From positions 1,039-65,038 of the forward strand of contig DATHOY010000041.1 of assembly GCA_035484435.1 (NCBI GenBank): a stretch of DNA of 64,000 bases. The letters run 5' to 3'. Below the pieces are notes generated by a model that was not told the DNA's origin, did not search any database, and saw nothing but the letters and a program-made list of their open reading frames with translations. Origin of the DNA: Vulcanimicrobiaceae bacterium (GTDB taxonomy: Bacteria; Acidobacteriota; Terriglobia; Acidiferrales; UBA7541). Shown here one piece after another: positions 42,528 to 64,000 of this stretch (its first letter is position 1; each line of letters starts with the position of its first letter). Position numbers and translations under genes: made by a program.

Positions 42528-42528
42528 G

Positions 42529-43899: not shown

Positions 43900-44562
43900 T
43901 TACGCGTGTGATTTTATTTGCGCTTTGTGTTTGTGAACAATCGCTGCAAGCAATTTGGCGGCCTCAGTGAGCTTGTGTGCTTCATTCCTGCGGAGTGCCC
44001 CAAGATCGGCCAGTTCCGCGCCTATTCCCAACGCGAAGGCACCGGCTGCGAAATATTCTTCCGCATTCTTCAGATTGACCCCGCCCGTGGGGATAAATCG
44101 GCAATCGGGGAACGGCGCCCTCAGCGCTTTGATGTGACCCGGGCCTCCTCCGCTGCCACACGGGAAAATCTTGATGACGTTCACACCCAAGTCCTTCGCC
44201 GCCATCACTTCGGTTGGGGTGAACGCGCCGGGAATGGCCAGCACTCCGTGCTTCGCAGCGGTATGAATGACCTCGGGAGCGAGGCCCGGGCTGACCAGGA
44301 ATTGTGCACCTGCATCGATACAAACCTCCGCTTGCTTGGCATCCAAGACCGTTCCAGCCCCGATCAACAAATCGCAGTTCGCGCGCGCGACCTCGCGCAG
44401 CACTCGAGGTGCATCCGGCACGGTCATCGTAATTTCCACAACGGGAATTCCCCCCGCGCAGACCGCTTCCACCGCCCGCGATGCCTCGGCCGCATTTGCC
44501 GCGCGAATCACCGGCACAATGCCGATCTCGCCGATTCGCCGGATGATTTCTTCTACGTTCAT
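43900..44562 (-). CDS. eda: KDPG/KHG aldolase
   Basis: IVPVIR, VEITM, IGAGTVL, FLVSPG, GAFTPTE, KIFP, PTGGVN. Confidence 0.93.
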
Positions 44563-44595
44563 CTCTTGCTCCGCGGAGTGATTTTCGTTAACGCA

Positions 44596-45687
44596 TCAGC
44601 GCGAAATGCGCGCCGTTCCGCCTTTCATTGCCTCCAAAACCTCCTGCAAGCTGGCCATCGAGGCATCCCCAGGCGTCGTCATTGCCAGCGCGCCATGAGC
44701 CGCGCCGCACTCCAGCGCCCACGCGATGTCTTTTCCCGACAGCAACCCGTAGATCAGGCCGGAAGCGAAAGAATCGCCTCCCCCCACGCGATCGAAAATC
44801 TCCAAATTTTCCCGGTTCGCCGCTTGATAAAACTCCCCCTCCGAATAGGCGATGGCGCCCCAATCGTTGCGGGTTGCCGTTTTCGCGTTGCGCAACGTTG
44901 TAGCCACCACGGAGAGATCGGGAAAATCGCGCTTCACCTTCTCAATCATCTTCTGGAAGAATCCCGGAGCGAGTTGGGAGTGAGCCTCATCGACTCCTTC
45001 CACTTCGTAGCCCAGAGCGGCCGTAAAATCCTCTTCGTTCCCGAACAAGACATCCACCTTGGAAACCAGCGCCCGGTTCACGGCTTGCGCCTTTTCCTTG
45101 CCTCCATTCGACGACCACAAGGACGCCCGATAGTTCAGGTCATAGGAGACGATGGTTCCCGCGCGTTTTGCCGCTTCCATCGCTTCCCGCGCGATGACTG
45201 GCGTAGTTTCCGAAAGGGCGCAGAAAATCCCTCCCGTATGAAACCAGCACGCCCCCTGCTCCGAAAAAATCTTCTCCCAATCTATCTCTCCGGGCTTTAG
45301 TTGCGATACCGCCGTGTGTCCGCGGTCAGAGCAGCCCAGTGCCGCACGGATCCCAAATCCGCGCTCGGTAAAGTTCAAGCCATTTCGCACCGTGCGTCCC
45401 ACGCCGTCGTACTTCACCCAGCGCAATTGCTCCAGACTTACGCCGCCTTGCAACATGAGGTCTTCAATTAACCGGCCGATGGGGTTATCGGCCAGAGAGG
45501 TAACGATTGCGGTCTCCATACCGAAGCATCGCCGCAGCCCGCGGGCCACGTTGTATTCGCCTCCGCCCTCCCAGGCCCGAAATTCGCGCGCGGTGGAGAT
45601 CCGCGTTTCTCCTGGATCCAGTCGCAGCATGACCTCGCCCAGGCTGACCAGGTCCCAACGGCAGTGTTCCTTTGATTTGATTTTCAT
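44596..45687 (-). CDS. kdgK: 2-keto-3-deoxygluconate kinase (PfkB family)
   Basis: LGEVMLRL, GGGEYNVA, WFHTGGI, SYDLNYRASLW, DRVGGGDSFASG; adjacent to eda. Confidence 0.88.
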   Translation of the reverse strand: MKIKSKEHCRWDLVSLGEVMLRLDPGETRISTAREFRAWEGGGEYNVARGLRRCFGMETAIVTSLADNPIGRLIEDLMLQGGVSLEQLRWVKYDGVGRTVRNGLNFTERGFGIRAALGCSDRGHTAVSQLKPGEIDWEKIFSEQGACWFHTGGIFCALSETTPVIAREAMEAAKRAGTIVSYDLNYRASLWSSNGGKEKAQAVNRALVSKVDVLFGNEEDFTAALGYEVEGVDEAHSQLAPGFFQKMIEKVKRDFPDLSVVATTLRNAKTATRNDWGAIAYSEGEFYQAANRENLEIFDRVGGGDSFASGLIYGLLSGKDIAWALECGAAHGALAMTTPGDASMASLQEVLEAMKGGTARISR

Positions 45688-45706
45688 GCTTCGTTCCGAT
45701 TTCCCA

Positions 45707-47044
45707 TCAGGACACCACTTTCGTGGTTGGGATCAACCGGCGCTCCGGATCAACCACAAGCCAGGCAATCGCACCCGCAACACTCAATACCGCGGCTACA
45801 AGAAAGGAGGAAGTCCAACCGTATTGCTGTGCAATCGCCGGCGTGAGCGACGCGGTCAAGGCACCGCCGAACTGCCCGCCCATGTTCATGAATCCAGAAG
45901 CCGAGCCCGCGCTATCCCCGGCAATATCCGCGGTGATCGACCAATACGAGCTTTGCGAGAGATACAGCGCGCCGGCGCCGCCGGAAAGGACAATGCTCGC
46001 CACAGGAGCGCTTGTAGCCCGCGAACCTAAGACCAAAAAAGCCGAGGCGAGAAGCAGCGCCAGAAAGGCGACTCCGCAGCGTCCGACGCGTTTGCCATAA
46101 GCACGTGAGAGCGCGTCATTGATCGCACCCCCAGACAGGCTGCAAGCAACTATGGCCAGCGGGGGGAGGGTGCTATACAGAGCGCTGGCCTTCAGGTCCA
46201 TACCGCGTACCTTGGCCAGATAGATGTAGAACCAACTGAAGAAAATCCAGGCAACGTAGCCGAAACAAAAATAACTTGCCGTGACGGCCAGAATGCTTTT
46301 GCTGGTGAGGATGCTGCGCCAACTGATAAGGGAAACGGACGAAACCTCGCTCTCCTTATCAGTAGAGTTTTCCATGCTTGAGCCAACCGGCGCGGCATGC
46401 GCGCGGTACTTCTGGATTAACGAAAGCTCCGAAGCGTTCACCGATGGATGTAGTTCGGGCTTGTCTCGCGCGATGAGATACCAGACGATTCCCGCGAGCA
46501 ACCCGACGAGTGCGCTAACCCAAAAAGACGAGCGCCATCCGTAGTGGATCATCAGGTAACTGACAACGAGTGGGGCTATTCCCGCGCCGGCTCCAACGCC
46601 TGCGAAGATCAACCCGTTAGCCTTGCCGCGCTCTTGCGAAGGTATCCACTGGGACACGAACTGGTTCGAGGAGGGATAGATAATGGCCTCACCGGCTCCG
46701 AGAAGAAATCGCACCAGGATGAAGAAGACCACGGCGCCCCAGACTTTGGTCGGCAACGAAGCCGTCAGCGCCGTAAAGATTCCCCACCACACCACGCCAA
46801 ACGTAAGTATTCGCCGCGGGCCGAACCGATCCACCAGCCACCCGCCGGGCGTTTGAAACAATGCGTAGCCCAGCAGAAACGCAGTGAACACCCACCCCAG
46901 CCGCACCTGGCTCAGGTGGTATTCCTCCGCCAGCGAACTCCCCGCAATCGAAATATTAACCCGGTCCAGGTAGGAAATTCCGCTCAGCACGAACAGCCAG
47001 AACACCAGCAGCCAGCGAACTCGGCTCGCTGCCTGCCCGCTCAT
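45707..47044 (-). CDS. MFS transporter, anion:cation symporter (DgoT/GudP-like sugar-acid importer)
   Basis: ISYLDRVNISIA, GWLVDRFGPRR, RFLLGAGEA, WIPSQERG, GFMNMGGQFGG. Confidence 0.88.
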   Translation of the reverse strand: MSGQAASRVRWLLVFWLFVLSGISYLDRVNISIAGSSLAEEYHLSQVRLGWVFTAFLLGYALFQTPGGWLVDRFGPRRILTFGVVWWGIFTALTASLPTKVWGAVVFFILVRFLLGAGEAIIYPSSNQFVSQWIPSQERGKANGLIFAGVGAGAGIAPLVVSYLMIHYGWRSSFWVSALVGLLAGIVWYLIARDKPELHPSVNASELSLIQKYRAHAAPVGSSMENSTDKESEVSSVSLISWRSILTSKSILAVTASYFCFGYVAWIFFSWFYIYLAKVRGMDLKASALYSTLPPLAIVACSLSGGAINDALSRAYGKRVGRCGVAFLALLLASAFLVLGSRATSAPVASIVLSGGAGALYLSQSSYWSITADIAGDSAGSASGFMNMGGQFGGALTASLTPAIAQQYGWTSSFLVAAVLSVAGAIAWLVVDPERRLIPTTKVVS

Positions 47045-47127: not shown

Positions 47128-48387
47128 TCAGGCGGCGTGCGCTTTCAAAACTGCCACCACCGCGTTGGCTATGATCTTGTCTTCACCGGGTTGCAGCATG
47201 AAAGAGTTCAGCGAGAGGACTTCGCCCTCTTCTCCCGCACTCAGCACAATCGCGGGCTTGCCCTTGCGCAGAGCCCCGGCGATCTCCCTGGGAGTTGCCG
47301 CGATCTTTTTGTCCCACAGTATTTTCAGGTGTGGAACGTGATTGGCGATGTCCGGAACAAAAAATTTCGTCGTGACGCCCGGGACTTTTGAAATTTCCGC
47401 TGAGATGAGTTCCAGGCGATGCTGCCATTCCTTGTTGAGCGCTTCGTGGTCTTCCTGGAGGTAGCACTCCAACGCTTTCACCATGCCGACGATCTCCTCT
47501 TTCCCGACTTTTTGGCTGCGGCCGATCGTGTCTTCATGCGGGCTGTTGTTCAGAAGCGCGTAGCTCACCAGGTCTTTGCGCCCAACCAGCAGTCCTGCGC
47601 ATTGCGGGCCGCGAATGGCCTTGCCTCCGCTGAACGCGATCAGGTCGTACCCCATGCTGGCGTAGTCCCAAAGGTGCGACACAGGCGGAGTGTCCGCCGC
47701 GGCGTCAATAAACGTGGGAACCTTGTATTCCTTTCCCAATTTCGCCCACTCCTCCACCTTGATCTGCCCCGCGGCGTTCGCGAAATTCGAAAAATGCATC
47801 ATCGCCGTTTTTTCGTTGACGGCCTTTCGCAAATCGTCGCGATCCACAACTTCGACCAGCCGGATCCCGGTGGCACGCAATTGGTGATCAAACGGATTGC
47901 GGTGTGATTTTTGGATGATCACTTCGGACTTCATGCCGGTCAGATCGGGAAGTTGCCGGATGAATTGGGGATTGTCCTTCGTCAGGATTCCCGCCAGCCC
48001 CGAGAGCATCGCAGCCGCGGCTCCCGAAGTCACCAGCGCGGAATAATCCGGCGGTAGCTTCAACATTTCCGCGATTCGTTTTCCGGCGGCCACCTCAAGT
48101 TCCGGAATGTTTACGAAATGCCGCCCGGCCAGGGCCATCACCGCTTCCACCTCCGGGCGCATCAGTGATCCGCCCAGCATGGTCATGGTTCCTTGACCGT
48201 TGATCACGGTCGTAACGCCCAGCTCGTCATACACGTTTCCTGTCTGGCCAAAACCCTTGACGGCGCCGTCGTTCACTGGGCCGGCCGGGTTTGCGGCCGG
48301 CAGCTTTCTCGCGCCCAGAATCATTGCCGCCAGCGAACTAATCCCGGTCATGAAGCCGCGGCGGGTCCATTTCGCACTGAAGTTCAT
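47128..48387 (-). CDS. SelA-like/DgaE-family PLP-dependent enzyme with twin-arginine signal (copy 1)
   Basis: TRRGFMT Tat motif; YDELGVTTVING.GTMTMLGGS, VTSGAAAA, FIDAAAD, FSGGKAIRGPQ (PLP Lys), KVGKEEIVG. Confidence 0.85.
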   Translation of the reverse strand: MNFSAKWTRRGFMTGISSLAAMILGARKLPAANPAGPVNDGAVKGFGQTGNVYDELGVTTVINGQGTMTMLGGSLMRPEVEAVMALAGRHFVNIPELEVAAGKRIAEMLKLPPDYSALVTSGAAAAMLSGLAGILTKDNPQFIRQLPDLTGMKSEVIIQKSHRNPFDHQLRATGIRLVEVVDRDDLRKAVNEKTAMMHFSNFANAAGQIKVEEWAKLGKEYKVPTFIDAAADTPPVSHLWDYASMGYDLIAFSGGKAIRGPQCAGLLVGRKDLVSYALLNNSPHEDTIGRSQKVGKEEIVGMVKALECYLQEDHEALNKEWQHRLELISAEISKVPGVTTKFFVPDIANHVPHLKILWDKKIAATPREIAGALRKGKPAIVLSAGEEGEVLSLNSFMLQPGEDKIIANAVVAVLKAHAA

Positions 48388-48414: not shown

Positions 48415-48921
48415 TTACTTGCGAACCACAGCGGCCGTGCAGTTGATTTCCACCAGGGACTGACCGGGCAACGCGGCGACGGCAACCGTTGTTCTTGCCG
48501 GCCCACCATTCGGAAAATAAGTCTTGAAGACCTTGTTCATCCCGTCGTAGTCCTCGATCTTGGTCAGGTAAACGGTCAGTTGCAAGATGCTGTCCATCGC
48601 GCCGCCGCCGGTTTCCACCAGGGTCTTCACATTGTCCATCACCTTTTGCGTGTGGGTCTCAATGTCGAAAGCGAATTTGCCTTCGGGATCATGCGAATGA
48701 GCGCCCTGGCCGGCGATGTAGATCACCCCGTTGTGAATGATCAGCGGCGTGATGAATCCGGTGCCCGCGGCTTTGCCCTCATAATTCAACTTCTGAACAC
48801 CGCTTGGAGCCTGCGCGGCGGCCGGAGTCGAACCGGAAAATAAACTCGCAAAGCCGGTGCCTGCCAACAGGGAAGCGAACTTTGTTGCGAAACCTCTGCG
48901 ATTGCTGAGTGTTGAAGACAC
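48415..48921 (-). CDS. RidA/YjgF family imine deaminase with twin-arginine signal
   Basis: GTG start after AGGAGG; SNRRGFATK; IYIAGQG, MNKVFKTYF, PARTTV (catalytic Arg), LVEINC. Confidence 0.88.
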   Translation of the reverse strand: MSSTLSNRRGFATKFASLLAGTGFASLFSGSTPAAAQAPSGVQKLNYEGKAAGTGFITPLIIHNGVIYIAGQGAHSHDPEGKFAFDIETHTQKVMDNVKTLVETGGGAMDSILQLTVYLTKIEDYDGMNKVFKTYFPNGGPARTTVAVAALPGQSLVEINCTAAVVRK

Positions 48922-48952: not shown

Positions 48953-50587
48953 TCACAAACGAAAACAGAAAACGTCACTTCCCGCGGCGATCGCGACCTG
49001 TTGATTCCCATTCACAGCGAAACTCATGGGCGAGGCAGTGATGCTCTGGCCGGTAGAGAAATGCCAGAGGGGAGCGCCCGTGCTTGCGTCCACCGCTTCG
49101 AACGACTCGGCGTCGTCTCCGAAAAAGACCAGGCCGCCTGCCGTGGTCATCGTGCCGGCGCTCGATCGCCCGGATCCTACTTGCGGGTATTTCCAGGCCG
49201 GCTTGGAGGAGGAAAGGCCGTACGCCAGCAGAATTTTTCTGCCCGTGTCGCCAGGACTCCGTTTCGCGCCGGTCGCGTAGTACATGTGCCCGGGAACGAA
49301 TTTTTGTTCGCCGCGAAAATAAAGGCTGCAGTTTTCCGACGCCAGAAAATAAAACAGGCCGGTCGACGGATTGTAGGAAGGCGCGTACCAGTTCGTCGCG
49401 CCGGAAAATCCCGGGCAAACGCGAGAGCCTTTCTCCGTCGGGATCACTCCCGTAAGAATAGGCCGTCCGTTCCTATCGATTCCCTTCGCCCAATTCAATT
49501 TCTCCACGAACGGAACCGCGGAAAGAAATTTTCCATCCACGCGATCCAGAATGTAGAAATAACCGTTGCGGTTTGCTTCGACCAGCAGTTTCCGCGCTTT
49601 CCCCTGGTATTCCGCATCAACCAGAACGGGAGTCTCCGTCGCGTCGTAGTCGTAGAGATCGTGCGGCGTGAATTGGAAGTGCCACTTCAGCTTGCCCGTG
49701 TCCGGATCCAGGGCCACGACGCAGTCCGTGTACAGATCATCGCCGGGCCGCGTGTCTCCGTTGAAGTCCGGAGCGGGATTGCTGGTTCCCCAAAACAGGG
49801 TGTTCAATTCCGGGTCGAACGTACCCGGCATCCATGTAGTGCCGCCGCCGAGAAGATAGGCTTTGCCAGGCCAACTTTCCGATCCTGGCTCGCCGGGACC
49901 CGGTATGGTCCAGAATCGCCACGCCAGCTTTCCCGACTCCGCATCGTACGCCGAAACGAATCCGCGAACGCCGTCATCGCCGCCGGACGTCCCCACGATC
50001 AACTTGTCCTTTACCAGCAAGGGAGCGCTGGTGGCGCCGTAGTTTTTGTTGCCATCCGTGTAAGCAACATCCCAAATCAAATTGCCCGAACGCGCATCGA
50101 GGCACAGCAAGTGGGCGTTGTCCGTCTCCATGTACACGCGCGAATGCCATATCGCCACGCCGCGGTTGTGATGCTCTGCCGCGTCGTCGATCAATCCTTG
50201 CGTGACAGGCCGCGCGTAGTGCCAAACGATCCGTCCCGAGAGGGCATCCAGCGCATACGCATCGTTGGCCGACGTCACGAACATCACGCCTTCGTACACG
50301 ACAGGCGTTACCTCTAACGCGCTCGAATTGGGCGCATGAAACACCCAACTCACCCGCAATCGGCCCACGTTATTCTTGTTGATCTGATCCAGAGAACTAA
50401 ACCGTCTCCCGGTGTAGTCTCCATTGTAGGAGAGCCAATTCGCACCGATTGGTTGGGAAAGCAATTTTTCAGGCGCAAGATCAACTTTGGCGACGGCCGA
50501 ACTTTGCTCGGACGGTGCAAGATTTCCCGGCAACGCCAGGCACCCGGCCAGCACCGCCTCCGCAAGGAAGTACCCTCTCCGGCTCAT
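48953..50587 (-). CDS. PQQ-type beta-propeller dehydrogenase (acidobacterial quinoprotein-like)
   Basis: NWLSYNGDY..RRFSSLDQIN, EVTPVVYEG, NRGVA, ATSAPL, WGTSNP, FQFTPHDLYDYD, ANRNG, CPG..GATNW. Confidence 0.9.
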   Translation of the reverse strand: MSRRGYFLAEAVLAGCLALPGNLAPSEQSSAVAKVDLAPEKLLSQPIGANWLSYNGDYTGRRFSSLDQINKNNVGRLRVSWVFHAPNSSALEVTPVVYEGVMFVTSANDAYALDALSGRIVWHYARPVTQGLIDDAAEHHNRGVAIWHSRVYMETDNAHLLCLDARSGNLIWDVAYTDGNKNYGATSAPLLVKDKLIVGTSGGDDGVRGFVSAYDAESGKLAWRFWTIPGPGEPGSESWPGKAYLLGGGTTWMPGTFDPELNTLFWGTSNPAPDFNGDTRPGDDLYTDCVVALDPDTGKLKWHFQFTPHDLYDYDATETPVLVDAEYQGKARKLLVEANRNGYFYILDRVDGKFLSAVPFVEKLNWAKGIDRNGRPILTGVIPTEKGSRVCPGFSGATNWYAPSYNPSTGLFYFLASENCSLYFRGEQKFVPGHMYYATGAKRSPGDTGRKILLAYGLSSSKPAWKYPQVGSGRSSAGTMTTAGGLVFFGDDAESFEAVDASTGAPLWHFSTGQSITASPMSFAVNGNQQVAIAAGSDVFCFRL

Positions 50588-50648: not shown

Positions 50649-51521
50649 TTACTTCGCGGCGACCTTTCGGCGCGAAACAGGACGCTCTCGTCGCACTTTC
50701 CGCGCGTGCTGCACAGTCGCCCGCCCAATGGCAACTGGATGATATTTAGTCCCTTGAAACCCGAGTTCGCGCGATATTTTTATTCCGGCATCGCGCACCA
50801 GCGGCGCAATTTCGCGGAGACGGTTTGTGGACATCCGTACGGCCGGGCCGGTCACGCTCAAGCTGGCATTTACCGCGCCCGTGTGGTCCCAGATCGGGGC
50901 CGCAATGCAGCGGATATGCGGTTCGTGTTCCTCAAGGTCGCAGGCAAAACCGTCTTTTCTTACTCTCATCAGTTGTGCATGCAGTTCCTGAATGCTCCCG
51001 ACCGTATTCTCTGTAAAGCGGCGCAACTCCAGTTCATTGACAACTCTCTCCTGCTCCTCCGGCTCAAGATAGGCAAGCATCACCTTGCCCACCGCCGTGC
51101 AGTAGAGTGGAACGCTGGCTCCAATCCGCGAGTGAATCCGCAGCGGCTCAGGAGATTCCATCTTTTCGATATATACGGCCGTCAACTTGTGCCTGACCGT
51201 AAGGTGAACAGTTTCCCGCGTGCTCCGGTTCAACTGTTCCAGGTGAGCGAAGCTCGCCTTTCGAACATCCAGTTGTTCCCGGGCTGCCTGTCCAAGCGAT
51301 ACACAAGCCACGCCCAGGTGATAGTTGTTCAGCTCATCCTTGGCAAGAAACCCGCCCGCTTCCAAATTGACCAGGAAGCGGTGGACCGTGCTCACAGGCA
51401 AAGCGGAGAGTTTCGCAATTTCTGAGGCGGGGAGCCCTCGCCCGGCCTGGCCCATTAGTTGCAACATGCGCAGGCCGCGTTGAAGGGAGGTGATGTTGTA
51501 TTCCCGCTTTTGGACACTCAT
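50649..51521 (-). CDS. IclR family transcriptional regulator (KdgR-like)
   Basis: SLQRGLRML, LPVSTVHRFL HTH, ETVHL, PLYCTAVGK, CIAAPI, LSVTGP. Confidence 0.93.
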   Translation of the reverse strand: MSVQKREYNITSLQRGLRMLQLMGQAGRGLPASEIAKLSALPVSTVHRFLVNLEAGGFLAKDELNNYHLGVACVSLGQAAREQLDVRKASFAHLEQLNRSTRETVHLTVRHKLTAVYIEKMESPEPLRIHSRIGASVPLYCTAVGKVMLAYLEPEEQERVVNELELRRFTENTVGSIQELHAQLMRVRKDGFACDLEEHEPHIRCIAAPIWDHTGAVNASLSVTGPAVRMSTNRLREIAPLVRDAGIKISRELGFQGTKYHPVAIGRATVQHARKVRRERPVSRRKVAAK

Positions 51522-51557: not shown

Positions 51558-51572
51558 ATTCACTGCATGAAA
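51558..51572. promoter_or_regulatory. Putative IclR-type operator ATTCA-N5-TGAAA
   Basis: Imperfect palindrome upstream of the IclR gene, matching the sites at 52618 and 54754. Confidence 0.5.
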
Positions 51573-54918: not shown

Positions 54919-57900
54919 ATGCGAAAGTGCAATTGTTTCTTCGCTCTTTTTATTTTTTTGGCTGCTGCGATGATTTTTAACGCGGGACTTGTGCGCGCGG
55001 ACGTGACTGGTTCGGTTCTCGGCACCGTGCGCGACAGTTCGCAGGCGATAGTTTCTGGCGCGCACGTCACCATCACGAATGCACAAACGAACCTCAAGCA
55101 GGAAACGGTTTCTGGGGCTGACGGCACCTACCGGTTCCTCGCACTCGCCGCTGGCGTGTACAAACTCACCGTCACCGCCCCTGGATTCAAAACCTACAGT
55201 ACGACAGCTATCGACGTGAAAGTGAACGACCAGTTGCAGGTCGATGTGACCCTCAGCGTGGGCTCGGCTACCGAAGTTATCAGCATTGAAGCCAACGCCG
55301 TCCAGGTGCAAACCGAGAGCACGCAACTTGGCGACGTTATCGATTCCAAGAAAATGCTCGCTCTTCCCCTGAACGGCCGCAGCTTCATCGATCTGCTCGG
55401 CCTACAGGCGGGCGTGGCTCCCGCCACCGCCGAGACGATCCAGCAGGACCGTCCGGTATCGGGCGGCTTAAGCGCCGGTAACATCTCCGTGAATGGCCAG
55501 CGCGAAACGGCGAACGCTTTCCTGGTGAATGGCGGCGACGTCAGTGAAGGGCGCAACCTCGGCGCGGGCATGGTGCCCAATTTGGATTCCATCGAGGAAT
55601 TTCGCCTCATCACCAATAGTTTTGACGCGGAGTATGGGAAATTCAGCGGCGCGGTCGTAAATGCCATCACCAAATCCGGCACCAACAGCTTTCATGGGGA
55701 CGCCTTCGAATTTTTGCGAAACGACAAGCTGGATGCCAAGAATTTCTTTTTCGGGTCCAAATCCGAGTTGCGGCGCAATCAATTCGGCTATGCGGCGGGA
55801 GGGCCTGTCTGGAAGAACAAAATCTTCTGGTTCTCGGACTACCAGGGCACACGCGAGGTGAAAGGCGCGGAAGCCAGCCAGGTTACGGTACCCACGACAG
55901 ACCAGCGTGGAGGTAACTTTAATTTAGGATCGTTCGAAACGACCGACTCCAATGGAAACCCGATACCTACAACAGTAGACGGCGGGTACTGGGCCCAGGT
56001 GTTGTCGACGCGCTTAGGTTACTCCGTTACACCGGGAGAGTCATATGCCGAAGTGCAGGTACCGGACAGCAGCCCACTTGGGTACCACATGGCATTCTGT
56101 ACCAGCAATACTCAATGCGTGTTTCCTAATGGCATGGTCCCACAGACAGCTTGGTCAGCTCCCTCCAAGGCCATACTTCCGTATATTCCGGCGCCGACGG
56201 TTGCAGGAGTAAGCGCAAATAACTATTCGAATAACAGCGGGAAAAACATAACCAACGACGACAAAATTGGCGAGCGCATCGATTTCAACAACCAGAGGAC
56301 GGGGAATTGGTCCTGGTATTACCATTTCGATCGCTCCAACCTAGATGCGGCGCTGTTACCGTCCTCACAGGGTGGTTTCGCCTCTGTGCCGGGCTTTCCC
56401 ACAGTCTCGCCTTCGCGAGCGCAAGAGTTCGTGATGAGCAACACCAAGACTCTGGGAGCGACAGCGGTCAACGAGGCGCGGTTCAGCTTATTCCGTACTG
56501 CTCTGCGTTTAAACAACCCGGCTGGGAGTTTCGCCCAGCTTTCTGACCTGGGTTTCAACAATGCTAATGGCCTCGGCATTATCCCGCTGGCCGGATATCC
56601 GCAGTATGTGCCGCAGATCACCTTTCCCAACATCGGCAACAACGGCTTGAACATTGGCGTGCCCACGCTGAATACCTTCCAACCCAATACCACCTACGCA
56701 GTTAGTGACGTATTTTCGAAGAGCCAGGGCAAACACACCTGGAAGGTTGGCGGGGAATTTCGCTACCTGCAAGTGAATGAACGTAACTTTGCCAATCCGA
56801 ATGGTGGCTTCACATTTGATGGCACGGTGACAGGAGCCCCTTTTGCGGACTACCTGCTTGGCGCGACTTCAACCACCAGCGCGCCGTACACCCAGGCCGC
56901 GGAACAATTCCTGGATTCGCGCACACGTTATGGTGGCGCCTTCTTCCAGGATTCCTGGAAGGTAAAATCCAATCTCACGCTGAACCTGGGGCTGCGCTGG
57001 GAAGTCAGTATGCCGTGGTACGATACGCAAGGAAAGATCCAGACCTTTGTCCCCGGGCTTCAGTCAACCACTTTCCCGCTTTCTCCTACCGGCTTGGTAT
57101 TCCCAGGAGACCCGGGCATTCCGAAAACTTTGGCTCCAACGAAATATAACAACTTCGGTCCTCGACTGGGTCTGGCGTATTCGCCGGGATTTTCCGACGG
57201 CATACTGGGCAAAATATTTGGCGGCCCTGGCAAATCCAGCGTCCGAGCGTCCTACGGTCTGTACTACACCTCGGTTGAGGACCTGAACCTGTTTTACGAA
57301 GTGGCGGATGCGCCGTTCGGCCTCTATTGGACCTCGCCTGTCTCGGTCATGTTTGACGAACCTTTCCGAGTTAGAGCCACCGGGGCCTCCTTGAACCAGC
57401 GCTTTCCCTTCACTGCGCCGGTTCCGGGCGCACCATCGAACCAGACGCTGGATTTTTCCGTGTACGAGCCCTTCAATTTTTTCCCGGGCTACGACATTCA
57501 CAACAAGCTGCCTTACGCGGAGCACTTCAATCTTTCGATCCAACGCGAGCTAACCAAGTCAACGGTGCTGACCGTGGCTTACGTCGGGACCGAGGGGCAC
57601 CGCCTTATCACTCAGAAGGACGCGAATCCTGGGTCCGCCGCACTATGCCAGCAACTCACGGCGGAAAATGCGATAGACGTGACCGCGGGAGGAACCCTTG
57701 GCTGCGGACCTGGCAACGAGAACGACGTTTTCCAAGTGACACCTGGCGCCCCATGTCTGCCAGCGGCTGGTCAGCCATTTAGTCCTACCCCTGTCCCGGG
57801 ATGCGTTTACAGCACCCGGCAGTCCATCTTAAATCCAAACTTCTGTCCCGGCGGGGCGCAGGTTTGCTTCGGCTCCAACAACACCAATACCCTTACGAGC

Positions 57901-58656
57901 GCCAATTCCATCTACAACGCCGCCCAAATCACGGTCGAGCGCAAGGCCAACGATTTTACATTCCTGGCAGCGTATACGTTCGCGAAAGGCCTGGATGATT
58001 CTTCGGCGTTCAACGACCTGGTGAACTTCGAAAACCCCAAGTTGAGCCGGGGGCTTTCCTCGAGCGACATCACGCACAATTTTGTCGTCAGTTATATTTG
58101 GGCCGTCCCATTTGATCGGGCTTTCGCCAACGCGCCCAAGCGCTTGACCCAAGGCTGGCAGATTCAGGGAATCACGCGGTTCTCTACCGGTTTCCCCATT
58201 CAGTTGAACCAGGGCAGCGATGATATTTCGTTGGCCGGAAGCTCCGCGACAGACATGCCGGATCGCGTGGGGCCGGTTGTCAAGTGGGACCCGCGAAAGC
58301 GGAGTACCTCTTGTGACTCCTACGATCCCACCGCTCCGGATCCGAGCCAGACTGGTTATGGATGCTACTTCCTGACCGGTGCATTTGCCCCCAACACAAC
58401 TCTGGGAACGTTTGGCACCGCCAACCGGCGCTTCTTCCACGGCCCCGGCTTCAACAACACCGATTTCGGAATAACAAAGCGAACGCAAATTAAAGAGAAT
58501 TTCGCTTTCGACCTGCGATTCGAATTTTTCAACATCTTCAACCATGCGCAATTCAAGAATCCAGATGGAAACATCAACGATACGGGCGGCTTCGGAGTCG
58601 TCACGTCCGCGCGTGATCCGCGTATTGGGCAGGTCAGCGCGAAGTTCTACTGGTAG
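54919..58656 (+). CDS. TonB-dependent receptor (acidobacterial type)
   Basis: Signal peptide; LPLNGRSF, IEEFRLITNSFDAEYG, FEFLRND, RNQFGYAAGGP, FFQDSWKV, NNFGPRLG; terminal KFYW. Confidence 0.93.
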   Translation: MRKCNCFFALFIFLAAAMIFNAGLVRADVTGSVLGTVRDSSQAIVSGAHVTITNAQTNLKQETVSGADGTYRFLALAAGVYKLTVTAPGFKTYSTTAIDVKVNDQLQVDVTLSVGSATEVISIEANAVQVQTESTQLGDVIDSKKMLALPLNGRSFIDLLGLQAGVAPATAETIQQDRPVSGGLSAGNISVNGQRETANAFLVNGGDVSEGRNLGAGMVPNLDSIEEFRLITNSFDAEYGKFSGAVVNAITKSGTNSFHGDAFEFLRNDKLDAKNFFFGSKSELRRNQFGYAAGGPVWKNKIFWFSDYQGTREVKGAEASQVTVPTTDQRGGNFNLGSFETTDSNGNPIPTTVDGGYWAQVLSTRLGYSVTPGESYAEVQVPDSSPLGYHMAFCTSNTQCVFPNGMVPQTAWSAPSKAILPYIPAPTVAGVSANNYSNNSGKNITNDDKIGERIDFNNQRTGNWSWYYHFDRSNLDAALLPSSQGGFASVPGFPTVSPSRAQEFVMSNTKTLGATAVNEARFSLFRTALRLNNPAGSFAQLSDLGFNNANGLGIIPLAGYPQYVPQITFPNIGNNGLNIGVPTLNTFQPNTTYAVSDVFSKSQGKHTWKVGGEFRYLQVNERNFANPNGGFTFDGTVTGAPFADYLLGATSTTSAPYTQAAEQFLDSRTRYGGAFFQDSWKVKSNLTLNLGLRWEVSMPWYDTQGKIQTFVPGLQSTTFPLSPTGLVFPGDPGIPKTLAPTKYNNFGPRLGLAYSPGFSDGILGKIFGGPGKSSVRASYGLYYTSVEDLNLFYEVADAPFGLYWTSPVSVMFDEPFRVRATGASLNQRFPFTAPVPGAPSNQTLDFSVYEPFNFFPGYDIHNKLPYAEHFNLSIQRELTKSTVLTVAYVGTEGHRLITQKDANPGSAALCQQLTAENAIDVTAGGTLGCGPGNENDVFQVTPGAPCLPAAGQPFSPTPVPGCVYSTRQSILNPNFCPGGAQVCFGSNNTNTLTSANSIYNAAQITVERKANDFTFLAAYTFAKGLDDSSAFNDLVNFENPKLSRGLSSSDITHNFVVSYIWAVPFDRAFANAPKRLTQGWQIQGITRFSTGFPIQLNQGSDDISLAGSSATDMPDRVGPVVKWDPRKRSTSCDSYDPTAPDPSQTGYGCYFLTGAFAPNTTLGTFGTANRRFFHGPGFNNTDFGITKRTQIKENFAFDLRFEFFNIFNHAQFKNPDGNINDTGGFGVVTSARDPRIGQVSAKFYW

Positions 58657-58786
58657 AATGCAAGTGCGGTCAGGGGTGCTCCCCTGCGCTCCTGATTCCA
58701 CTTCGCCACACACTGTTGAATAGTGGCCTGGCGGAGGGCGCAGAGGTGCACGCGCGCCAATTCCGACAACTGGAAGCAGCCGCAAA

Positions 58787-60463
58787 TTGGTCACGCGTAA
58801 ACTAAAGACGAGTAGCAAATTTCTCCCTCGCGGAATTTTTCTGACTGCGGCCGTACTGGCTCTGGTCGTGCTTCTCCCGGGGCCGTGCCGCGCCCAGACC
58901 GCGGAAACATTCCGCAAGCAGGCCCTCGAGTTTTCCAAATCAAAGTCCTGGGACCAAGCCATCGCTAATTACCGCGAAGCTCTCGCCCTTGAGCCCAACG
59001 ATCCTCTCACTCACTTCGACTTGGCACTCGCGCTGAAATACAGTGGCAGCCCGGCGCAGGCCTTGCCGGAGTTCCAGGCTGCCCTGCAACTCAAACCCAA
59101 ATGGGCAGCGGCTCACTACGGGTTGGGCTCAGCCTATTATGATTTGCACGATTCATCCGCCGCAGCCAAGGAATTAAAGGCGGCGGTGGGCCTTGATCCC
59201 GCAAACACAGAGGCGCACAGGCTTCTCGCTCGAATCTATGTCCAGCAGAATGATCCCCAGGGCGCGGCGCGCGAATTGCGCCGTGCGCTCGCCGCAAAGC
59301 CTTCGGCAGAGGTCTGTTTCGAGTTGGGACTCGCCGAAGCGCAACTTGGCAACTCCGAAGCAGCCACCCAGCAATTCCGCCGCGTCCTGCAATTCAATCC
59401 GCGCTACGCCAGTGCGCACCTGATGCTGGGCATAATTCTTCGCCGCCAAGGCGATCATGCCGGCGCGCTCGCGCAATTCCAAAAGGCCGCGGAACTCGCT
59501 CCGGAGGATCCCGAAGCTCAATTCAATCTTGGCAAAGAGCTGAAGGCCAAGGACGATAAAGCAGGCGCGATCGCCGCCTTCCGGCGCGCCATCGAACTCA
59601 AACCCGATTTTGAACAAGCGCACTACAACCTGGGAATTACTTTGCGTTCGCAGGGAGAAGATGCCGAGGCCAAAAAGGAGCTTAGCGAACTGAAGGGCCT
59701 CCATGAATTCCGCACGCGACTGGCGCAATCCAAATACTTGATCCTCCAGGGCGTGGAAGCTCTGAAGCAGCAAAAAGTGGACGAAGCCCTCCGGCTGTTT
59801 CAGGAAGCGGCCGAACAAAGTCCCGAACTTCCTACCAGCTACTACTACCTGGGCCTCGTCTGGGAGCATAAAAACGATCCGGCTTCCGCGTCCTCCTCTT
59901 ATGAAAAAGCCATCTCCCTGCAGCCGGATTATGCGCAGGCCCACACCAGTTATGGCTCGCTGCTGTGGCGGATGAACGATCGCGAACGCGGGCTCCAGGA
60001 GTTTCAGCGGGCCGTTATGTGCGACCCCGACTTGCGGGAAGCGCATTACAATCTTGGTCTGGCGCTCGCGCAACTGCAGCGCCTTGACGAAGCCATCCAG
60101 GAATTAAACCTCGCCATCAGCCTCGATCCGCATTATGTTGACGCGCGCGTGCAACTGGGTCTAGTTCTCAGCGAGAAAAACGATTTTGTCGGCGCGGCAA
60201 ATGTGTACAAGGAACTTCTGCGGCGCGATCCCAAATTTGCGGAGATTCACAACAATCTAGGCCTGCTGCTCCTGCAGTCCGGCGATGCGAAAGGCGCGCA
60301 GGTTGAGTTTCTGGAAGCGGCGCGACTGAAACCGCGCTATGCAGAAGCTCACTACAATCTTGCCCTGGCTCTCCAGAAAGCGGGAAAAGATGCCGAGGCG
60401 AATGCCGAATTCGAGAAGGCGTATGAAATTATGCCGGAACTCCGGAACTCCTCACCCCGCTAA
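58787..60463 (+). CDS. Exported tetratricopeptide-repeat protein
   Basis: Many TPR units (AHYNLG, AHYGLG, A..L.P); signal-like leader. Confidence 0.9.
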   Translation: MVTRKLKTSSKFLPRGIFLTAAVLALVVLLPGPCRAQTAETFRKQALEFSKSKSWDQAIANYREALALEPNDPLTHFDLALALKYSGSPAQALPEFQAALQLKPKWAAAHYGLGSAYYDLHDSSAAAKELKAAVGLDPANTEAHRLLARIYVQQNDPQGAARELRRALAAKPSAEVCFELGLAEAQLGNSEAATQQFRRVLQFNPRYASAHLMLGIILRRQGDHAGALAQFQKAAELAPEDPEAQFNLGKELKAKDDKAGAIAAFRRAIELKPDFEQAHYNLGITLRSQGEDAEAKKELSELKGLHEFRTRLAQSKYLILQGVEALKQQKVDEALRLFQEAAEQSPELPTSYYYLGLVWEHKNDPASASSSYEKAISLQPDYAQAHTSYGSLLWRMNDRERGLQEFQRAVMCDPDLREAHYNLGLALAQLQRLDEAIQELNLAISLDPHYVDARVQLGLVLSEKNDFVGAANVYKELLRRDPKFAEIHNNLGLLLLQSGDAKGAQVEFLEAARLKPRYAEAHYNLALALQKAGKDAEANAEFEKAYEIMPELRNSSPR

Positions 60464-60480: not shown

Positions 60481-61746
60481 TTAGCGGGGCGAACGTCTCT
60501 GTACTGCGATCAGTGAGACCTGCTCAAAATCCGGATAGTGTCCTTCGCTATCGGGGTTGCGTTCGCCCGGGCTGATCTGCTCGATGGTCGTCCGCGCAGG
60601 CATGATCGGGCCCAGATATTCTCCGTAAACCTTGTCGAACTCCATCGAGTCGGCAAGATCATCCAAATAGACGTTCGTGGACACGACCTGGCTGAAATCC
60701 ATTCCAGCCTCTTCCAAATTATCCAGGAGGTTGCGCATTGTTTGCCGCAACTGCGTCGCTGTAGTGGAGGCATACACTCCGCCGTGGGGCCCGGGGATAA
60801 AGCCGCTCTTCGCCGAACAATATAAGGTCTCCCCGGCAAACACGCAGGGACTCGCGGTCGGGCTCGGCGGCATGTTCTTCGGACGCACCGCCTTGCGAGC
60901 TTGGAGATCCCGCACCGCCACGCCCGTATATTCAATGTGCGCCCCGCCCGGCAGGCTGGCCACTTCGATTGTTGCGCGTGCCGGAGTATTCCCAAATTCA
61001 AACCGGCGCGCATAGTGCTGATTCATCACCCGCGCCAGAATCTCTTTGGTCAGGTATGGGTTCACAAACACCACATTGCTAAGTTCCAGCCCCGCGGCAT
61101 TTACGACCGCCTTCATGCCATCGAGCGCCAGATCGACCTGTGCGGCCGGATCGTCCGGAATTTTCCCGCTCGTTGGATCCGCGCCGGCCATGCTGGAAAT
61201 GAACAGCCGGTCGTGGGTCAATATCCCGGGAGAAAAGGAATCGCTATGCGGATAATTTGCCGGAGAAACGGCGCGCCGGCCTTCCAGATTGCGCACCGCA
61301 ACTGCGTTGATCTGCACCGGGGGATCCGGCAGGTTCGCCACTCCAAGCACGGCTCGTGCTGGCGGAACCTTCGAAAAGTACTTTGCAAAAGCGCCATCCA
61401 CTTCCTGTAGTTTGCTCACATCCGTCAGATAGACTTGCGTGTACACCACGTTATCCATCGTCAACCCGGCCGCCACAACAATTGCCTGGATGTTTTCCAA
61501 CGCCTGCCGTACTTGCTCGCTGGTCGTCGCCGGCAAACTACCTTCAGCGCCGCGCGGTCCCTGGCCGGAAATGTAAACGTAATCCCCGGCATCAACCGCC
61601 GGCGATACAAATTGGCTCGGGCTCTTAATTTGCTGCGGGGCGACGGCGCGAACACGCTCTTGCGCAGTCAGCCCATGCGCCAACCCGGCCATCAGAAACA
61701 ATACTCGCGCCGCCTGAATGGTTCGCTTCATGATCACAAGCCGCAT
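60481..61746 (-). CDS. Exported protein with three tandem RidA domains
   Basis: ATG after AAGGAG; signal ending LTA-QE; three repeats (VYISGQG..PARAV; LFISSM..PARAT; LYCSAK..PARTT). Confidence 0.88.
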   Translation of the reverse strand: MRLVIMKRTIQAARVLFLMAGLAHGLTAQERVRAVAPQQIKSPSQFVSPAVDAGDYVYISGQGPRGAEGSLPATTSEQVRQALENIQAIVVAAGLTMDNVVYTQVYLTDVSKLQEVDGAFAKYFSKVPPARAVLGVANLPDPPVQINAVAVRNLEGRRAVSPANYPHSDSFSPGILTHDRLFISSMAGADPTSGKIPDDPAAQVDLALDGMKAVVNAAGLELSNVVFVNPYLTKEILARVMNQHYARRFEFGNTPARATIEVASLPGGAHIEYTGVAVRDLQARKAVRPKNMPPSPTASPCVFAGETLYCSAKSGFIPGPHGGVYASTTATQLRQTMRNLLDNLEEAGMDFSQVVSTNVYLDDLADSMEFDKVYGEYLGPIMPARTTIEQISPGERNPDSEGHYPDFEQVSLIAVQRRSPR

Positions 61747-61768
61747 TCTCCTTATTGCCCAGTCAACC

Positions 61769-63055
61769 TCATGCCCGCTTTTTCTGCGCCGCGCCAAGCA
61801 CCGTGCGCAGTCTTTCTCCCACGATCATTTCTTCCCCCGGCTGGATGGTCATGGACACCAGCTCAATGTGGTCCGGCGCTTTGCGTTCTTTTCGTGTCGG
61901 TACCGGATTCCCCTCGCGAACCGCCGTCACCAGGCTGGGATTGTCCGTCCCAAGCACCTCGATAACCGGATCCCCCGCGCGCAACTCGCGCACGCAATCG
62001 GCAATCGTGTACCCCCACGCTTGCTGATCCCACGAAACTTTCAATGTCGGATACCGGTTTCCATCGTCGGGTACGTACGTGCTCGTTTTTACCTGCGGAA
62101 CCGTCTCCACAAGTTTTCGGATTCGCTCTATCCGCGCATTCCACTCTTCGTAAAGTTTCTTCTCGTCAATCTTTAACCACGTTTCTAGCGCGGCCACGCA
62201 CCCGATGACCTCTTCTTTGCCGACCTTCATCGGGCGACAGACGGCGCCTTCGCGCGGACTGCTATTCAGCAGCGCTGCCTCGATTAAATCCTTCCGGCCC
62301 AGCAGCAAGCCGCTGCACTGCGGCCCGCGCAATCCCTTGCCTCCTGAAAAACAATACAGATCGATTCCCATCCTCGCATAGAGTTTGGCGTTATCCACGG
62401 GAGGAATTCCCGCCGCATCATCCAGCAACAGGGGAATTTTGTGCTCCTTGGCCACCTTCAATTGCTGCTGCAGTTTTTCGCCCAGGTCCGTCGTGTAAAT
62501 CATCGCGGTGTTCTCGCCGATCGCCTTGGAGAGTTCTTCCGGCGAATATACGAGAACCAACTTCGCCCCGGTCAGCCGGATGGCGCTGTCAAACGCGCTG
62601 CGCCCTCCCATCATGATCACTTCGTGTTTCAGACCCGTCGTGTCCGGCAGTTGCCAGATCTTGTGGTCGTCCGTGCCGGCCATGCATCCGGCCGTCGCTG
62701 CCGCCATGGCCCCCGCGGAACCCGACGTAACGATGCCGGATTCGGCACCGGTTAATTCCGCCAATCGCCGCCCCACGCCACGCTGCAATTCGATCATGTT
62801 GACGAAATACTTGGAGGCCTCCTCCTGCGCCTCGCGAACCTCCGGAAATTCCAGCGAACCGCTCAGAAAAGTCCACGTTCCTCGGCAGTTGATTACCGTT
62901 TTCACCCCAAGCCGCGCGTAAACGTTCTGCCCCTGATCCACACCGATGGCCGTGGCCGCGTGTGCATAAAGGTTGCGTGCGGCTATCTGGCTCAGCAGCG
63001 GCGCAGCCGCCAACATCTTAAAAAAGGATCGCCGACTGGAATTTTCTCTGGACAT
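61769..63055 (-). CDS. SelA-like/DgaE-family PLP-dependent enzyme with twin-arginine signal (copy 2)
   Basis: SRRSFFK Tat motif; YARLGVKTVINCRGTWT.LSGS, LDDAAG, FSGGKGLRGPQ, MKVGKEEVIG. Confidence 0.85.
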   Translation of the reverse strand: MSRENSSRRSFFKMLAAAPLLSQIAARNLYAHAATAIGVDQGQNVYARLGVKTVINCRGTWTFLSGSLEFPEVREAQEEASKYFVNMIELQRGVGRRLAELTGAESGIVTSGSAGAMAAATAGCMAGTDDHKIWQLPDTTGLKHEVIMMGGRSAFDSAIRLTGAKLVLVYSPEELSKAIGENTAMIYTTDLGEKLQQQLKVAKEHKIPLLLDDAAGIPPVDNAKLYARMGIDLYCFSGGKGLRGPQCSGLLLGRKDLIEAALLNSSPREGAVCRPMKVGKEEVIGCVAALETWLKIDEKKLYEEWNARIERIRKLVETVPQVKTSTYVPDDGNRYPTLKVSWDQQAWGYTIADCVRELRAGDPVIEVLGTDNPSLVTAVREGNPVPTRKERKAPDHIELVSMTIQPGEEMIVGERLRTVLGAAQKKRA

Positions 63056-63133
63056 TGCCAAGCCTCCTTGGATTCTTGCCGTACACCTTCATCATCTTGT
63101 TGCTAGGATCTACCCATGTTCGGGGCGAAACTC

Positions 63134-64000
63134 TTAATCGACGTCTTCAGGCAGGGGAATCCGCGAACGTACTGCCAGGATGTGTGCTTGCGCTCCCGGT
63201 TTGTTCTGATTGTAGAAGCCAACCGTGCAGTTGGGACGGAAATAATACGCATCCCCCGCTTTCGCCGGAAATCGGCCTTCGATTCCGTCCATTCCGCTTC
63301 CTGCCGCCATTTCGCCATTTCCGTCCATGATGAGATAGATCTCTTCTGCAGCTTCATGGTGGTGGGGAAAGTTTGTCCCGCCCGGAGCGAAGTTCATCCA
63401 GAAAAAGCTCGTCACCACATAAGCCTCATCTAGGGCGTCCCGCTTTCCGTTTCGTGGCCCTATCAATAATTTGTAAAGCACCGAAGAGGGGTGACCGCCG
63501 ACGGTCTCCTCTTTGACCTCATCCAGGTTCACGATCTTTGGCTGTGCGCTCGGCGTGTTAATCGCGATTTTGGAGGGGATCTTAAAGCTCATCGCCAACA
63601 CCCGCAATGGCTCGCCAAATTCGTTCGAAATCGAATGTTTCACGCCCGGCGGCAAATAGGTAAAGTCGGACTGCCGCATCGCGTGCGGCTCGTCGCCATA
63701 GTGCAGTACTCCGCGGCCGCTCATCACGAAGTAAATCTCTTCTTCGCGGGCGTAAAGCTCGGGTTGGCAATTTCCGTGCGCTGCGATTTCGATCTCCCCG
63801 AACCGCGAAACACTCTGGAGAGTCCGGGCTTCGGGGTCCCCTTCGCCGAACAAAGGTTTGTAGCGGCAAGTGTCGGTCGTGAACCCGGCCGCAGACTCTT
63901 TCGCTTCGGGCAGCTTACGGTGCAGCCAGGTGGGGTCGATCTTCCGCTCCTGCGCAGCCAGGCAGGGAAGCAGCAGCAATGGCAGCAAGCCGGTTATTAA
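63134..64000 (-). CDS. Exported bicupin protein (start lies beyond the window end)
   Basis: Frame open to the window end (LITGLLPLLLLPCLAAQ); EEIYFVMSGRG...PGVKH and PHHHEAAEEIYLIMDG. Confidence 0.8.
   Translation of the reverse strand, partial: LITGLLPLLLLPCLAAQERKIDPTWLHRKLPEAKESAAGFTTDTCRYKPLFGEGDPEARTLQSVSRFGEIEIAAHGNCQPELYAREEEIYFVMSGRGVLHYGDEPHAMRQSDFTYLPPGVKHSISNEFGEPLRVLAMSFKIPSKIAINTPSAQPKIVNLDEVKEETVGGHPSSVLYKLLIGPRNGKRDALDEAYVVTSFFWMNFAPGGTNFPHHHEAAEEIYLIMDGNGEMAAGSGMDGIEGRFPAKAGDAYYFRPNCTVGFYNQNKPGAQAHILAVRSRIPLPEDVD

Follow-up and report, generated by a model that had tools for sequence, protein, structure and literature searches.

The window analysed here, a 64,000-nucleotide stretch of contig C41 in a soil acidobacterium's 4.9 Mb assembly that is 82% complete, carries at positions 43,900-64,000 a gene cluster that may specify a periplasmic conversion of free glucosamine, or of an epimeric amino sugar, into a 2-keto-3-deoxy sugar acid and ammonia, followed by import of the acid into the Entner-Doudoroff pathway. 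The whole chain is considered to have about an even chance of being correct. It is built around two pyridoxal phosphate (PLP) enzymes of the SelA/DgaE-like fold, designated here lyase 1 and lyase 2, both with twin-arginine leaders and both accompanied by leader-bearing proteins of the Rid family; PLP enzymes and Rid proteins of these kinds normally reside in the cytoplasm.

As proposed, the amino sugar would enter via a TonB-dependent receptor (TBDR), and a quinoprotein would oxidise its C1 with pyrroloquinoline quinone (PQQ), the electrons passing to a diheme cytochrome c; the families of these two proteins were recognised directly, the substrate being presumed. A lactonase would open the resulting lactone to a 2-amino-2-deoxy-aldonate, and a lyase exported by the twin-arginine translocation (Tat) system, after folding and taking up PLP in the cytoplasm, would eliminate the C3 hydroxyl of this unphosphorylated acid, a step that draws on the observed leaders and residue losses and on the reaction of DgaE. 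The product would be an enamine, freed for want of an equivalent of DgaE His163, and by analogy with the DgaE variant H163A an exported Rid protein would hydrolyse it to 2-keto-3-deoxygluconate (KDG) or 2-keto-3-deoxygalactonate and NH3, after which a transporter of the major facilitator superfamily (MFS) would import the acid for phosphorylation by KdgK and cleavage by Eda. The initial annotation spoke of an oxidative deamination; the oxidation is retained as a separate, earlier step at C1, and deamination would then proceed by beta-elimination, without oxidation.

All the genes named by that annotation were found in the region by a listing of open reading frames (ORFs) and by scans of the window against Pfam and NCBIfam profiles, and they form three transcription units. 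The first minus-strand unit (52423 to 43900) has the order rraA-iclR-quinoprotein-rid1-lyase1-MFS-kdgK-eda; the plus-strand unit (52785 to 60463) comprises the genes for the cytochrome c, the lactonase, the TBDR and a tetratricopeptide repeat (TPR) protein; and the second minus-strand unit consists of bicupin-lyase2-triple Rid. Lyase 1 (47128-48387, minus strand) is followed by the MFS-kdgK-eda run, with intergenic gaps of 19 and 33 bases. The two RidA proteins announced by the earlier description are both members of the Rid family, the second of them being a three-domain fusion.

The gene set proved to be conserved in relatives, as had been expected. Neighbourhoods were compared in 80 related loci with 10 kb flanks, 55 of them full length, the counts for distal genes being lower bounds; since these loci include kin and are not independent, lyase 1 was also clustered at 85% identity, which gave 25 clusters. 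Among the 80 loci, Rid1 accompanies the lyase in 73, the MFS transporter in 64, the RraA-like protein in 53, the cytochrome c and the quinoprotein in 51 each and the lactonase in 47, the less constant partners being IclR (22), the TBDR (18) and lyase 2 (12). The quinoprotein and the cytochrome c occur together in 48/80 loci, and together with the lactonase in 41/80. The kinship-reduced set gives a similar list, i.e. Rid and MFS in 21 clusters each, RraA in 18, the lactonase in 17, the quinoprotein in 16, Eda in 9 and KdgK in 7. Among named organisms, the nearest relatives of lyase 1 are found in metagenome-assembled genomes of Candidatus Acidiferrum/Acidoferrales and other Terriglobia. At the level of the phylum, a homologue (threshold E 1e-40) is present in 34 of the 301 genomes sampled from Acidobacteriota, and many of the 34 have 2-5 paralogues. 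Of 20 regions taken from 17 such genomes, 18 hold a lyase with a twin-arginine (RR) leader, the other genes being Rid in 11, a putatively exported deacetylase-family hydrolase in 8, RraA in 5, KdgK plus Eda in one and a fused cytochrome c-quinoprotein in one; in the distant acidobacterial locus L137 such a fusion adjoins the lyase. A Bacteroidota locus, from Chondrinema, has the order susC-susD-RidA(RR)-lyase(RR)-deacetylase-RraA. Only one of the seven deacetylase-bearing loci among the 80, kin included, also has the quinoprotein, so that the core of the module is the lyase with Rid, to which a deacetylase is added in some loci and an oxidation front end in others. Concerning the deacetylase NF006689, no full match was found in the assembly, OngB itself not having been among the queries. 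It should also be mentioned that genes for ApbE flavin transferases and for a DUF362 protein (carrying an RR leader in the copies inspected) lie beside those for lyase, Rid and deacetylase in the variant loci L022, L035, L041, L043, L046, L123, L128 and L139, possibly as another periplasmic redox module replacing the quinoprotein.

Concerning the identity of the lyases, the closest solved structures are those of DgaE (7LC0) and Cap15 (8T7J), to which the model of lyase 1 (pLDDT 96.9) has template-modelling (TM) scores of 0.83 and 0.86, respectively, at 26% identity. The lysine forming the Schiff base with PLP—Lys-217 in PMC9529869, Lys213 when counted on the 7LC0 sequence—is kept throughout the three sequence sets compared (85/85, 12/12 and 37/37), whereas the pair His162-His163 is found in none of them (0/85, 0/12, 0/37) and is present in the Clostridioides difficile and Rhizobium controls. 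Likewise, Arg301, Arg332 and Arg346 of DgaE are absent from both lyases in sequence alignments: the profile alignment to 7LC0 has a non-Arg consensus at Arg332 and Arg346, and in the pairwise alignment a His stands opposite Arg301 in lyase 1. The C. difficile DgaE control retains the His-His pair and all three Arg residues. The roles of these residues are taken from a single source, the portion of PMC9529869 consulted, according to which the substrate phosphate sits at Arg301/332/346, His162/163 are strictly conserved in DGL, and the H163A variant is fully active but frees the enamine. Because the His-His pair and the three Arg residues have been lost, the window lyases are not DgaE, yet they could act in a DgaE-like manner on an unphosphorylated acid. 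The loss of the phosphate-site Arg residues agrees with the earlier claim of an unphosphorylated substrate, and so does the failure to detect a phosphotransferase system (PTS), neither a mannose-family EIIC (PF03609) nor an enzyme I over the cut-off having been found in the 82%-complete assembly. That the reaction precedes import had been deduced from the occurrence of KdgK without a PTS; this deduction was not upheld, the export leaders being the proper ground for it. Overall, a beta-elimination on an amino-aldonate is regarded as fairly likely.

Lyase 2 (61769-63055, minus strand) is 42-44% identical to lyase 1, belongs to a separate subclade and lacks an equivalent of His112 (12/12 sequences); the identity and the separate subclades speak against a recent duplication, and the two enzymes probably differ in substrate. 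A role in selenocysteine synthesis was rejected as well, since both score low against the SelA profile TIGR00474 (48 and 23 of 268 bits) and a separate SelA-like gene is located on contig C86. A longer subclass of SelA-like proteins with RR leaders, of about 520-560 amino acid residues, was seen in L127, L129, L133, L134, L135 and L136, its extra C-terminal region of about 120 residues matching none of the queries used.

The fold alone leaves the reaction unfixed, because Cap15 catalyses an oxygen-dependent decarboxylation (PMC6411801, as far as the part consulted describes it). The exported PLP enzymes might use another substrate or chemistry—for instance an O2-dependent decarboxylation of the Cap15 kind, yielding an aldonamide, or the elimination of a group from some other beta-substituted amino acid, be it a glycosylated Ser/Thr, an amino-uronate or a nucleoside amino acid—with the sugar-acid genes handling a co-product. 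Apart from the match of the model to Cap15, which is as good as that to DgaE, this explanation could call on the change of every DgaE specificity residue tested and on the ExuT-like, KduD and exported amidohydrolase genes nearby; several substrates are also suggested by the numerous paralogues and by the loss of the His112 equivalent in lyase 2. The tight pairing with an Arg-bearing Rid (73/80 loci) nevertheless points to a product of the imine or enamine type, a kind not set free by Cap15; Cap15 itself retains the DgaE-like C-terminal Arg pattern, and the deacetylase and NagB-like neighbours suggest amino sugars. A different chemistry or substrate is rather doubtful. In favour of the main proposal, the substrates of DgaE and Cap15 are, as read here, amino sugar acids that carry a hydroxyl beside the amino-bearing carbon.

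The missing equivalent of His163 could be a reason for the Rid partner in the proposed deamination. Rid1 (48415-48921, minus strand, GTG start) and all the three domains of the triple Rid (60481-61746, minus strand; PF01042 in three stretches) have the catalytic-type Arg in a PART/PARA motif, and so do 73 of the 74 Rid1 orthologues; this residue is taken to correspond to Arg105 of the Escherichia coli protein. Single-domain Rid1 has a twin-arginine leader, whereas the triple Rid has a Sec-like one. Since the usual Rid assembly is a homotrimer, three domains in one chain might form a pseudo-trimer and so make export in the folded state unnecessary. Another Rid-family gene with a Sec-like leader is present on C82 of the same assembly (G000:C82, about 31770-32330), and a Rid without leader is encoded on C53.

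The oxidation module consists of three predicted exported proteins. The PQQ-type beta-propeller dehydrogenase (48953-50587, minus strand) scores 497 bits against TIGR03075 (cut-off 480) and 535 against TIGR04528, under the cut-off of 650. It shares with the type I PQQ alcohol dehydrogenases and the 'acido-empty-quinoprotein group A' (TIGR03075, TIGR04528) the eight-bladed propeller and largely aligned PQQ-contacting motifs of 1KV9/1KB0; it differs from the type I enzymes in lacking the vicinal Cys-Cys (AAEHH where 1KV9/1KB0 have CC), in having Asp in place of Glu at the metal site, and in a D-x-D motif, found in 50/50 orthologues. The D-x-D motif is linked to lanthanides. PqqC exceeds the cut-off in the window genome and in 16 of 24 genomes of the same genus, and an apparently complete pqqABCDE operon lies at 1467-5006 of L087 (G000:C242), its genes other than pqqC being tentatively named from their order and known motifs; the presence of PQQ genes is at odds with the family label 'acido_non_PQQ'. 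The diheme cytochrome c with two CxxCH motifs (52785-53612, plus strand; start uncertain, 52731 or 52785) and the SMP-30/gluconolactonase-family protein (53715-54695, plus strand; PF08450, PDB 3E5Z and 3DR2; start uncertain, 53628 or 53715) complete the module. A complex prediction for the quinoprotein and the cytochrome c, run without alignments, scored 0.00 and was not used as evidence.

With regard to the end of the route, the products of three genes are involved, namely the MFS transporter (45707-47044), a relative of D-galactonate (sugar-acid) transporters matching TIGR00893 with E 8.5e-67, under the cut-off; the KdgK-like PfkB kinase (44596-45687), whose best PDB match is the 2-keto-3-deoxygluconate kinase 2AFB (E 3e-57) and which is the sole close copy in the assembly; and Eda (43900-44562), an aldolase for KDPG (2-keto-3-deoxy-6-phosphogluconate) and 2-keto-4-hydroxyglutarate with 199 bits against TIGR01182 (cut-off 156), all on the minus strand. 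The genes for KdgK and Eda as the pathway end, assumed already by the initial annotation, are indeed present; the kinase is, however, weaker evidence for the pathway than was supposed, since it is a single-copy core gene (20 of 21 genus genomes, among them 6 of the 7 that gave no strong lyase hit) and adjoins the lyase in just 13/80 loci. The RraA-like protein of the HMG/CHA-aldolase fold (51638-52423, minus strand; Pfam), given no role previously, is the more constant partner. The motif of HMG/CHA aldolases, the enzymes for 4-hydroxy-4-methyl-2-oxoglutarate and 4-carboxy-4-hydroxy-2-oxoadipate, is Asp-X20-Arg-Asp. According to the residues from 3NOJ, the protein has Gly-X20-Arg-Asp instead, with Gly at Asp102 of the Pseudomonas putida aldolase in 52/52 orthologues; as the Arg-Asp is kept, the protein may still be active.

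It is conceivable that the 2-keto-3-deoxy acid is split by RraA while still in the periplasm, giving pyruvate and glyceraldehyde, or that RraA dehydrates or decarboxylates it; oxidation of the aldehyde could then fall to the quinoprotein and import of the small acids to the MFS transporter, KdgK and Eda being a later, optional addition. Such a role would accord with the leader on RraA in 52/52 orthologues, with its presence in 53/80 loci vs 13 for KdgK, with the Chondrinema cluster, in which RraA is present while neither kdgK nor eda is listed within 10 kb, and with the fold, which includes the HMG/CHA aldolase as well as FlDet, reported to act on 2-keto-3-deoxy-glucarate in the part of PMC8563752 consulted; moreover, members of the genus without the lyase still carry KdgK. 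Set against these points are the Gly at the position of Asp102, the MFS-kdgK-eda run placed directly after lyase 1, the adjacency of KdgK in 7 and of Eda in 9 of the 25 clusters, and the lactonase, which points to an aldose oxidation upstream. Cleavage by RraA in place of KdgK and Eda is considered unlikely.

The periplasmic placement of the lyases and Rid proteins was examined with a regular expression for the twin-arginine motif and a hydropathy heuristic. Lyase 1 (TRRGFM), lyase 2 (SRRSFF) and Rid1 (NRRGFA) each carry a twin-arginine leader behind an AGGAGG-type ribosome site, and the strict RR motif is present in 86 of the 88 lyase-1-type ORFs of the 80 loci—both exceptions lacking their 5' end—and in 12/12 lyase-2 ORFs, while 72 of 74 Rid1 orthologues have RR and 59 the strict motif. 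TatC is encoded in the assembly. Hydrophobic Sec-like leaders were seen in RraA, the cytochrome c, the lactonase, the TBDR, the TPR protein, the triple Rid and the bicupin, and an uncharged hydrophobic stretch precedes the mature part in 52/52 orthologues of RraA, 49/51 of the quinoprotein, 51/51 of the cytochrome c and 46/46 of the lactonase; the same heuristic applied to neighbours of cytoplasmic type gave 0/12 for KdgK, 0/24 for Eda and 2/22 for IclR, the latter being false hits. The earlier statement that the listed proteins have Tat or Sec-like leaders was borne out and extends to relatives, except that the quinoprotein is probably a Sec rather than a Tat substrate, the Tat route being rejected for it because its RR is not seen among the ortholog rows listed. 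Equally, the window copies of KdgK, Eda and IclR were found to have no leader, as described before.

In order to place the leader-bearing lyases among their relatives, 101 of 112 full-length representatives were kept from a 50%-identity library, nine partial or mis-started ones and those over 560 residues being left out, and a FastTree tree was calculated from mature sequences only, with the leaders removed. An RR leader is present in 37 of the representatives, 60 have no leader and four have a long leader without RR. The tree places 45 of the 46 leader-bearing rows on one side (support 90, unstarred) together with seven leaderless rows, several of which are probably 5'-truncated. Judged from sequence features of this kind, the lyases and the Rid proteins are very probably exported. 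A cytoplasmic pathway like ong with unused leaders, in which the MFS transporter would import the amino-aldonate for deamination inside, is highly improbable: localisation does rest on heuristic leader prediction and the characterised relatives DgaE, OngC and OngD are all described as cytoplasmic in the portions of the literature consulted, but the canonical twin-arginine motif and the uncharged stretch are kept across Acidobacteriota and the one Bacteroidota locus despite divergence in the remainder of the leader, the leaderless relatives begin at residue 2-15 of the fold and for the most part group on the opposite side of the tree, the leaders have strong ribosome sites in front of them, and PvdN offers the precedent of a periplasmic PLP enzyme (PMC6411801, in the part consulted). 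A precedent exists also for a periplasmic oxidase-Rid pairing.

Three intergenic palindromes, ATTCACTGCATGAAA (51558-51572) upstream of iclR, TTTCACCAGTTGAAA (52618-52632) in the gap separating rraA from the divergently oriented cytochrome c gene and TTCCATCAGGTGGAA (54754-54768) upstream of the TBDR gene, share the pattern WTYCA-N5-TGRAW, the first being kept at the same position in close relatives. The genome contains 129 sites of this pattern in 4.9 Mb, i.e. 0.53 per 20 kb, the pattern having been drawn from the same three sites with which this background is compared. A palindrome lies between genes in 16 of the 22 related loci with iclR vs 9 of the 58 without it, kin not being independent. 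The palindromes are likely operators of the IclR-family regulator (50649-51521, minus strand; Pfam/NCBIfam). They had been said to link the transcription units; they are real and conserved, but because no strict palindrome was found upstream of the bicupin-lyase2-Rid unit, they join only two of the three. Of 30 bins, 30, 17, 25 and 27 are reached by contigs from four soil metatranscriptome runs; these matches are short contigs, many of them from relatives and without a DNA control, and cannot show expression or co-induction.

The remaining genes of the cluster encode an acidobacterial TBDR-like outer-membrane barrel (54919-58656, plus strand; PF25183 and PF13620), the TPR protein (58787-60463, plus strand; Pfam), predicted as exported, and the bicupin (63134-64000, minus strand), the start of which is 51 bases past the window end. 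The end of contig C41 equals the start of C48 over 141 exact bases, and C48 (L086, 1-5363) continues with a DUF4380-like exported protein, a second quinoprotein 67% identical to the first, a NagB-like gene, an ExuT-like MFS transporter and KduD, the last of these over its cut-off. The join is supported by relatives, several of which share the bicupin-DUF4380-quinoprotein order. The hexosamine theme of the initial annotation gained ground from the NagB-like gene, which also occurs in 7/80 loci. After kduD, at 5542-13682 of L086, there are ORFs resembling heme peroxidase, GMC oxidoreductase, ferritin, PLD and flavin amine oxidase, named by sequence reading. A secreted protein of about 730 residues with an F5/8 type C domain is encoded near the cluster in 15-17 of the 80 loci (e.g. 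L068:12599-14806). On the other side, after eda, follows a putative exported Amidohydro_2 gene, and the adjacent Aga-type locus (window 29777-43731) contains a TBDR, an exported GH-like protein, a LacD-type tagatose-bisphosphate aldolase, a 1-PFK-family kinase, an AgaR-like regulator, an AgaS-like SIS protein and a PfkB kinase, ending on the minus strand with a GH36-like lipoprotein and the exported Amidohydro_2 protein. It probably represents a conventional galactosamine/tagatose route; the locus, the GH36 and the amidohydrolase were rejected as fixed parts of the cluster, being near it in 3-4 of 80 loci.

A route from glucosamine to glucosaminate is known in Pseudomonas. With the ong pathway, which in Pseudoalteromonas prydzensis comprises the deacetylase OngB, the deaminase OngC, the RidA protein OngD and KdgK (PMC9537276), the cluster shares, as far as the part consulted tells, a TBDR, a PLP deaminase for an unphosphorylated substrate (glucosaminate in ong), RidA, KdgK and often a KDPG aldolase. 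OngC is, however, a cytoplasmic enzyme of fold-type III, the importer is a sodium/solute symporter (SSS) and the oxidation is due to a lytic polysaccharide monooxygenase, whereas the window combines RidA and KdgK with lyases that match the SelA/DgaE fold and bear export leaders, an MFS importer and the quinoprotein-cytochrome c-lactonase front end. DgaE has in common with the lyases the fold, the PLP lysine and a product predicted for an Entner-Doudoroff aldolase; it is PTS-coupled (dgaABCD), unlike the window enzymes with their twin-arginine leaders, lost His162/163 and Arg301/332/346, Rid partners, MFS transporter, KdgK and oxidation module. Cap15, of the same fold, has a sugar-bearing beta-hydroxy amino acid as substrate and performs a biosynthetic, oxidative decarboxylation to an amide, the window cluster having a catabolic context with Rid partners. 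The route from glucosamine via glucosaminate to KDPG predicted for the haloarchaeal Natrarchaeobius (PMC12343721) resembles the present proposal, in the part consulted, by chitinase clusters that contain a DgaE homologue, a sugar dehydrogenase, IclR and a gene of the RutC/Rid family, and is itself hypothetical; its authors assume phosphorylation ahead of deamination and, in that part, propose no export. Thus the chemistry is already known, in ong on unphosphorylated glucosaminate and in dga on the 6-phosphate, and the exported SelA-fold version appears to be new: no published description of an exported SelA-fold lyase with an exported Rid and a quinoprotein front end was found in a search covering few subscription papers.

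Several observations weigh against the proposed amino-sugar route and have to be taken together. Both lyases are only about 26% identical to 7LC0 and miss the cut-offs of NF047797 (DgaE/DGL; 135 and 130 of 600 bits) and TIGR01437 (177 and 162 of 385 bits), their comparison with DgaE is by sequence alignment, in which the C-terminal columns of the large alignment are gappy, Cap15 matches the model as well as DgaE does and yet decarboxylates oxidatively, and no assayed member of the exported clade was found in the literature. The His-His pair is absent also from all of 60 leaderless relatives, most of which have lost the Arg residues too, so that these losses are not specific to export, and a Rhizobium homologue keeps His-His and yet has a RidA neighbour. 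As for the oxidation, the best solved relatives of the quinoprotein are alcohol dehydrogenases, it has Asp in place of the metal-binding Glu, and the whole module is absent within 10 kb in 24/80 loci; Eda and KdgK are adjacent in just 24/80 and 13/80, respectively. The RraA-like protein, the bicupin and the TPR protein find no explanation in the model, the NagB-like protein stays under its cut-off (119 of 237 bits), and ordinary hexosamine routes may exist in this organism because the genome has NagA and the adjacent Aga-type locus.

Seen more broadly, it is possible, if only tentatively proposed, that a periplasmic deamination module of Acidobacteriota and Bacteroidota is formed by exported Rid proteins together with SelA-fold lyases that use the Tat route and make up a widespread, uncharacterised clade; in soil acidobacteria it would be fed by quinoproteins acting with PQQ, possibly with a lanthanide, on hexosamines. 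The lyase may in that case have ceded the enamine-protonating His and handed the step over to RidA, and an exported RraA may finish the route to pyruvate.

Chitin, chitosan and cell walls supply amino sugars that make up a large pool of soil nitrogen, and Acidobacteriota are abundant in soil. If the proposal is true, a periplasmic oxidise-then-deaminate route would free ammonium prior to uptake, and pathway annotation would miss it because the genes are labelled 'L-seryl-tRNA selenium transferase' or 'uncharacterized PLP enzyme'. The anatomy of the cluster is solid, widespread and easily tested, and it offers testable functions for the exported SelA-like clade, for exported Rid proteins and for acidobacterial quinoproteins without Cys-Cys; it also probes why RidA should be needed where it has few PLP-enzyme targets. 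The 'empty' acidobacterial quinoproteins would then gain a function, and the nitrogen of amino sugars would leave as ammonia outside the cytoplasm.

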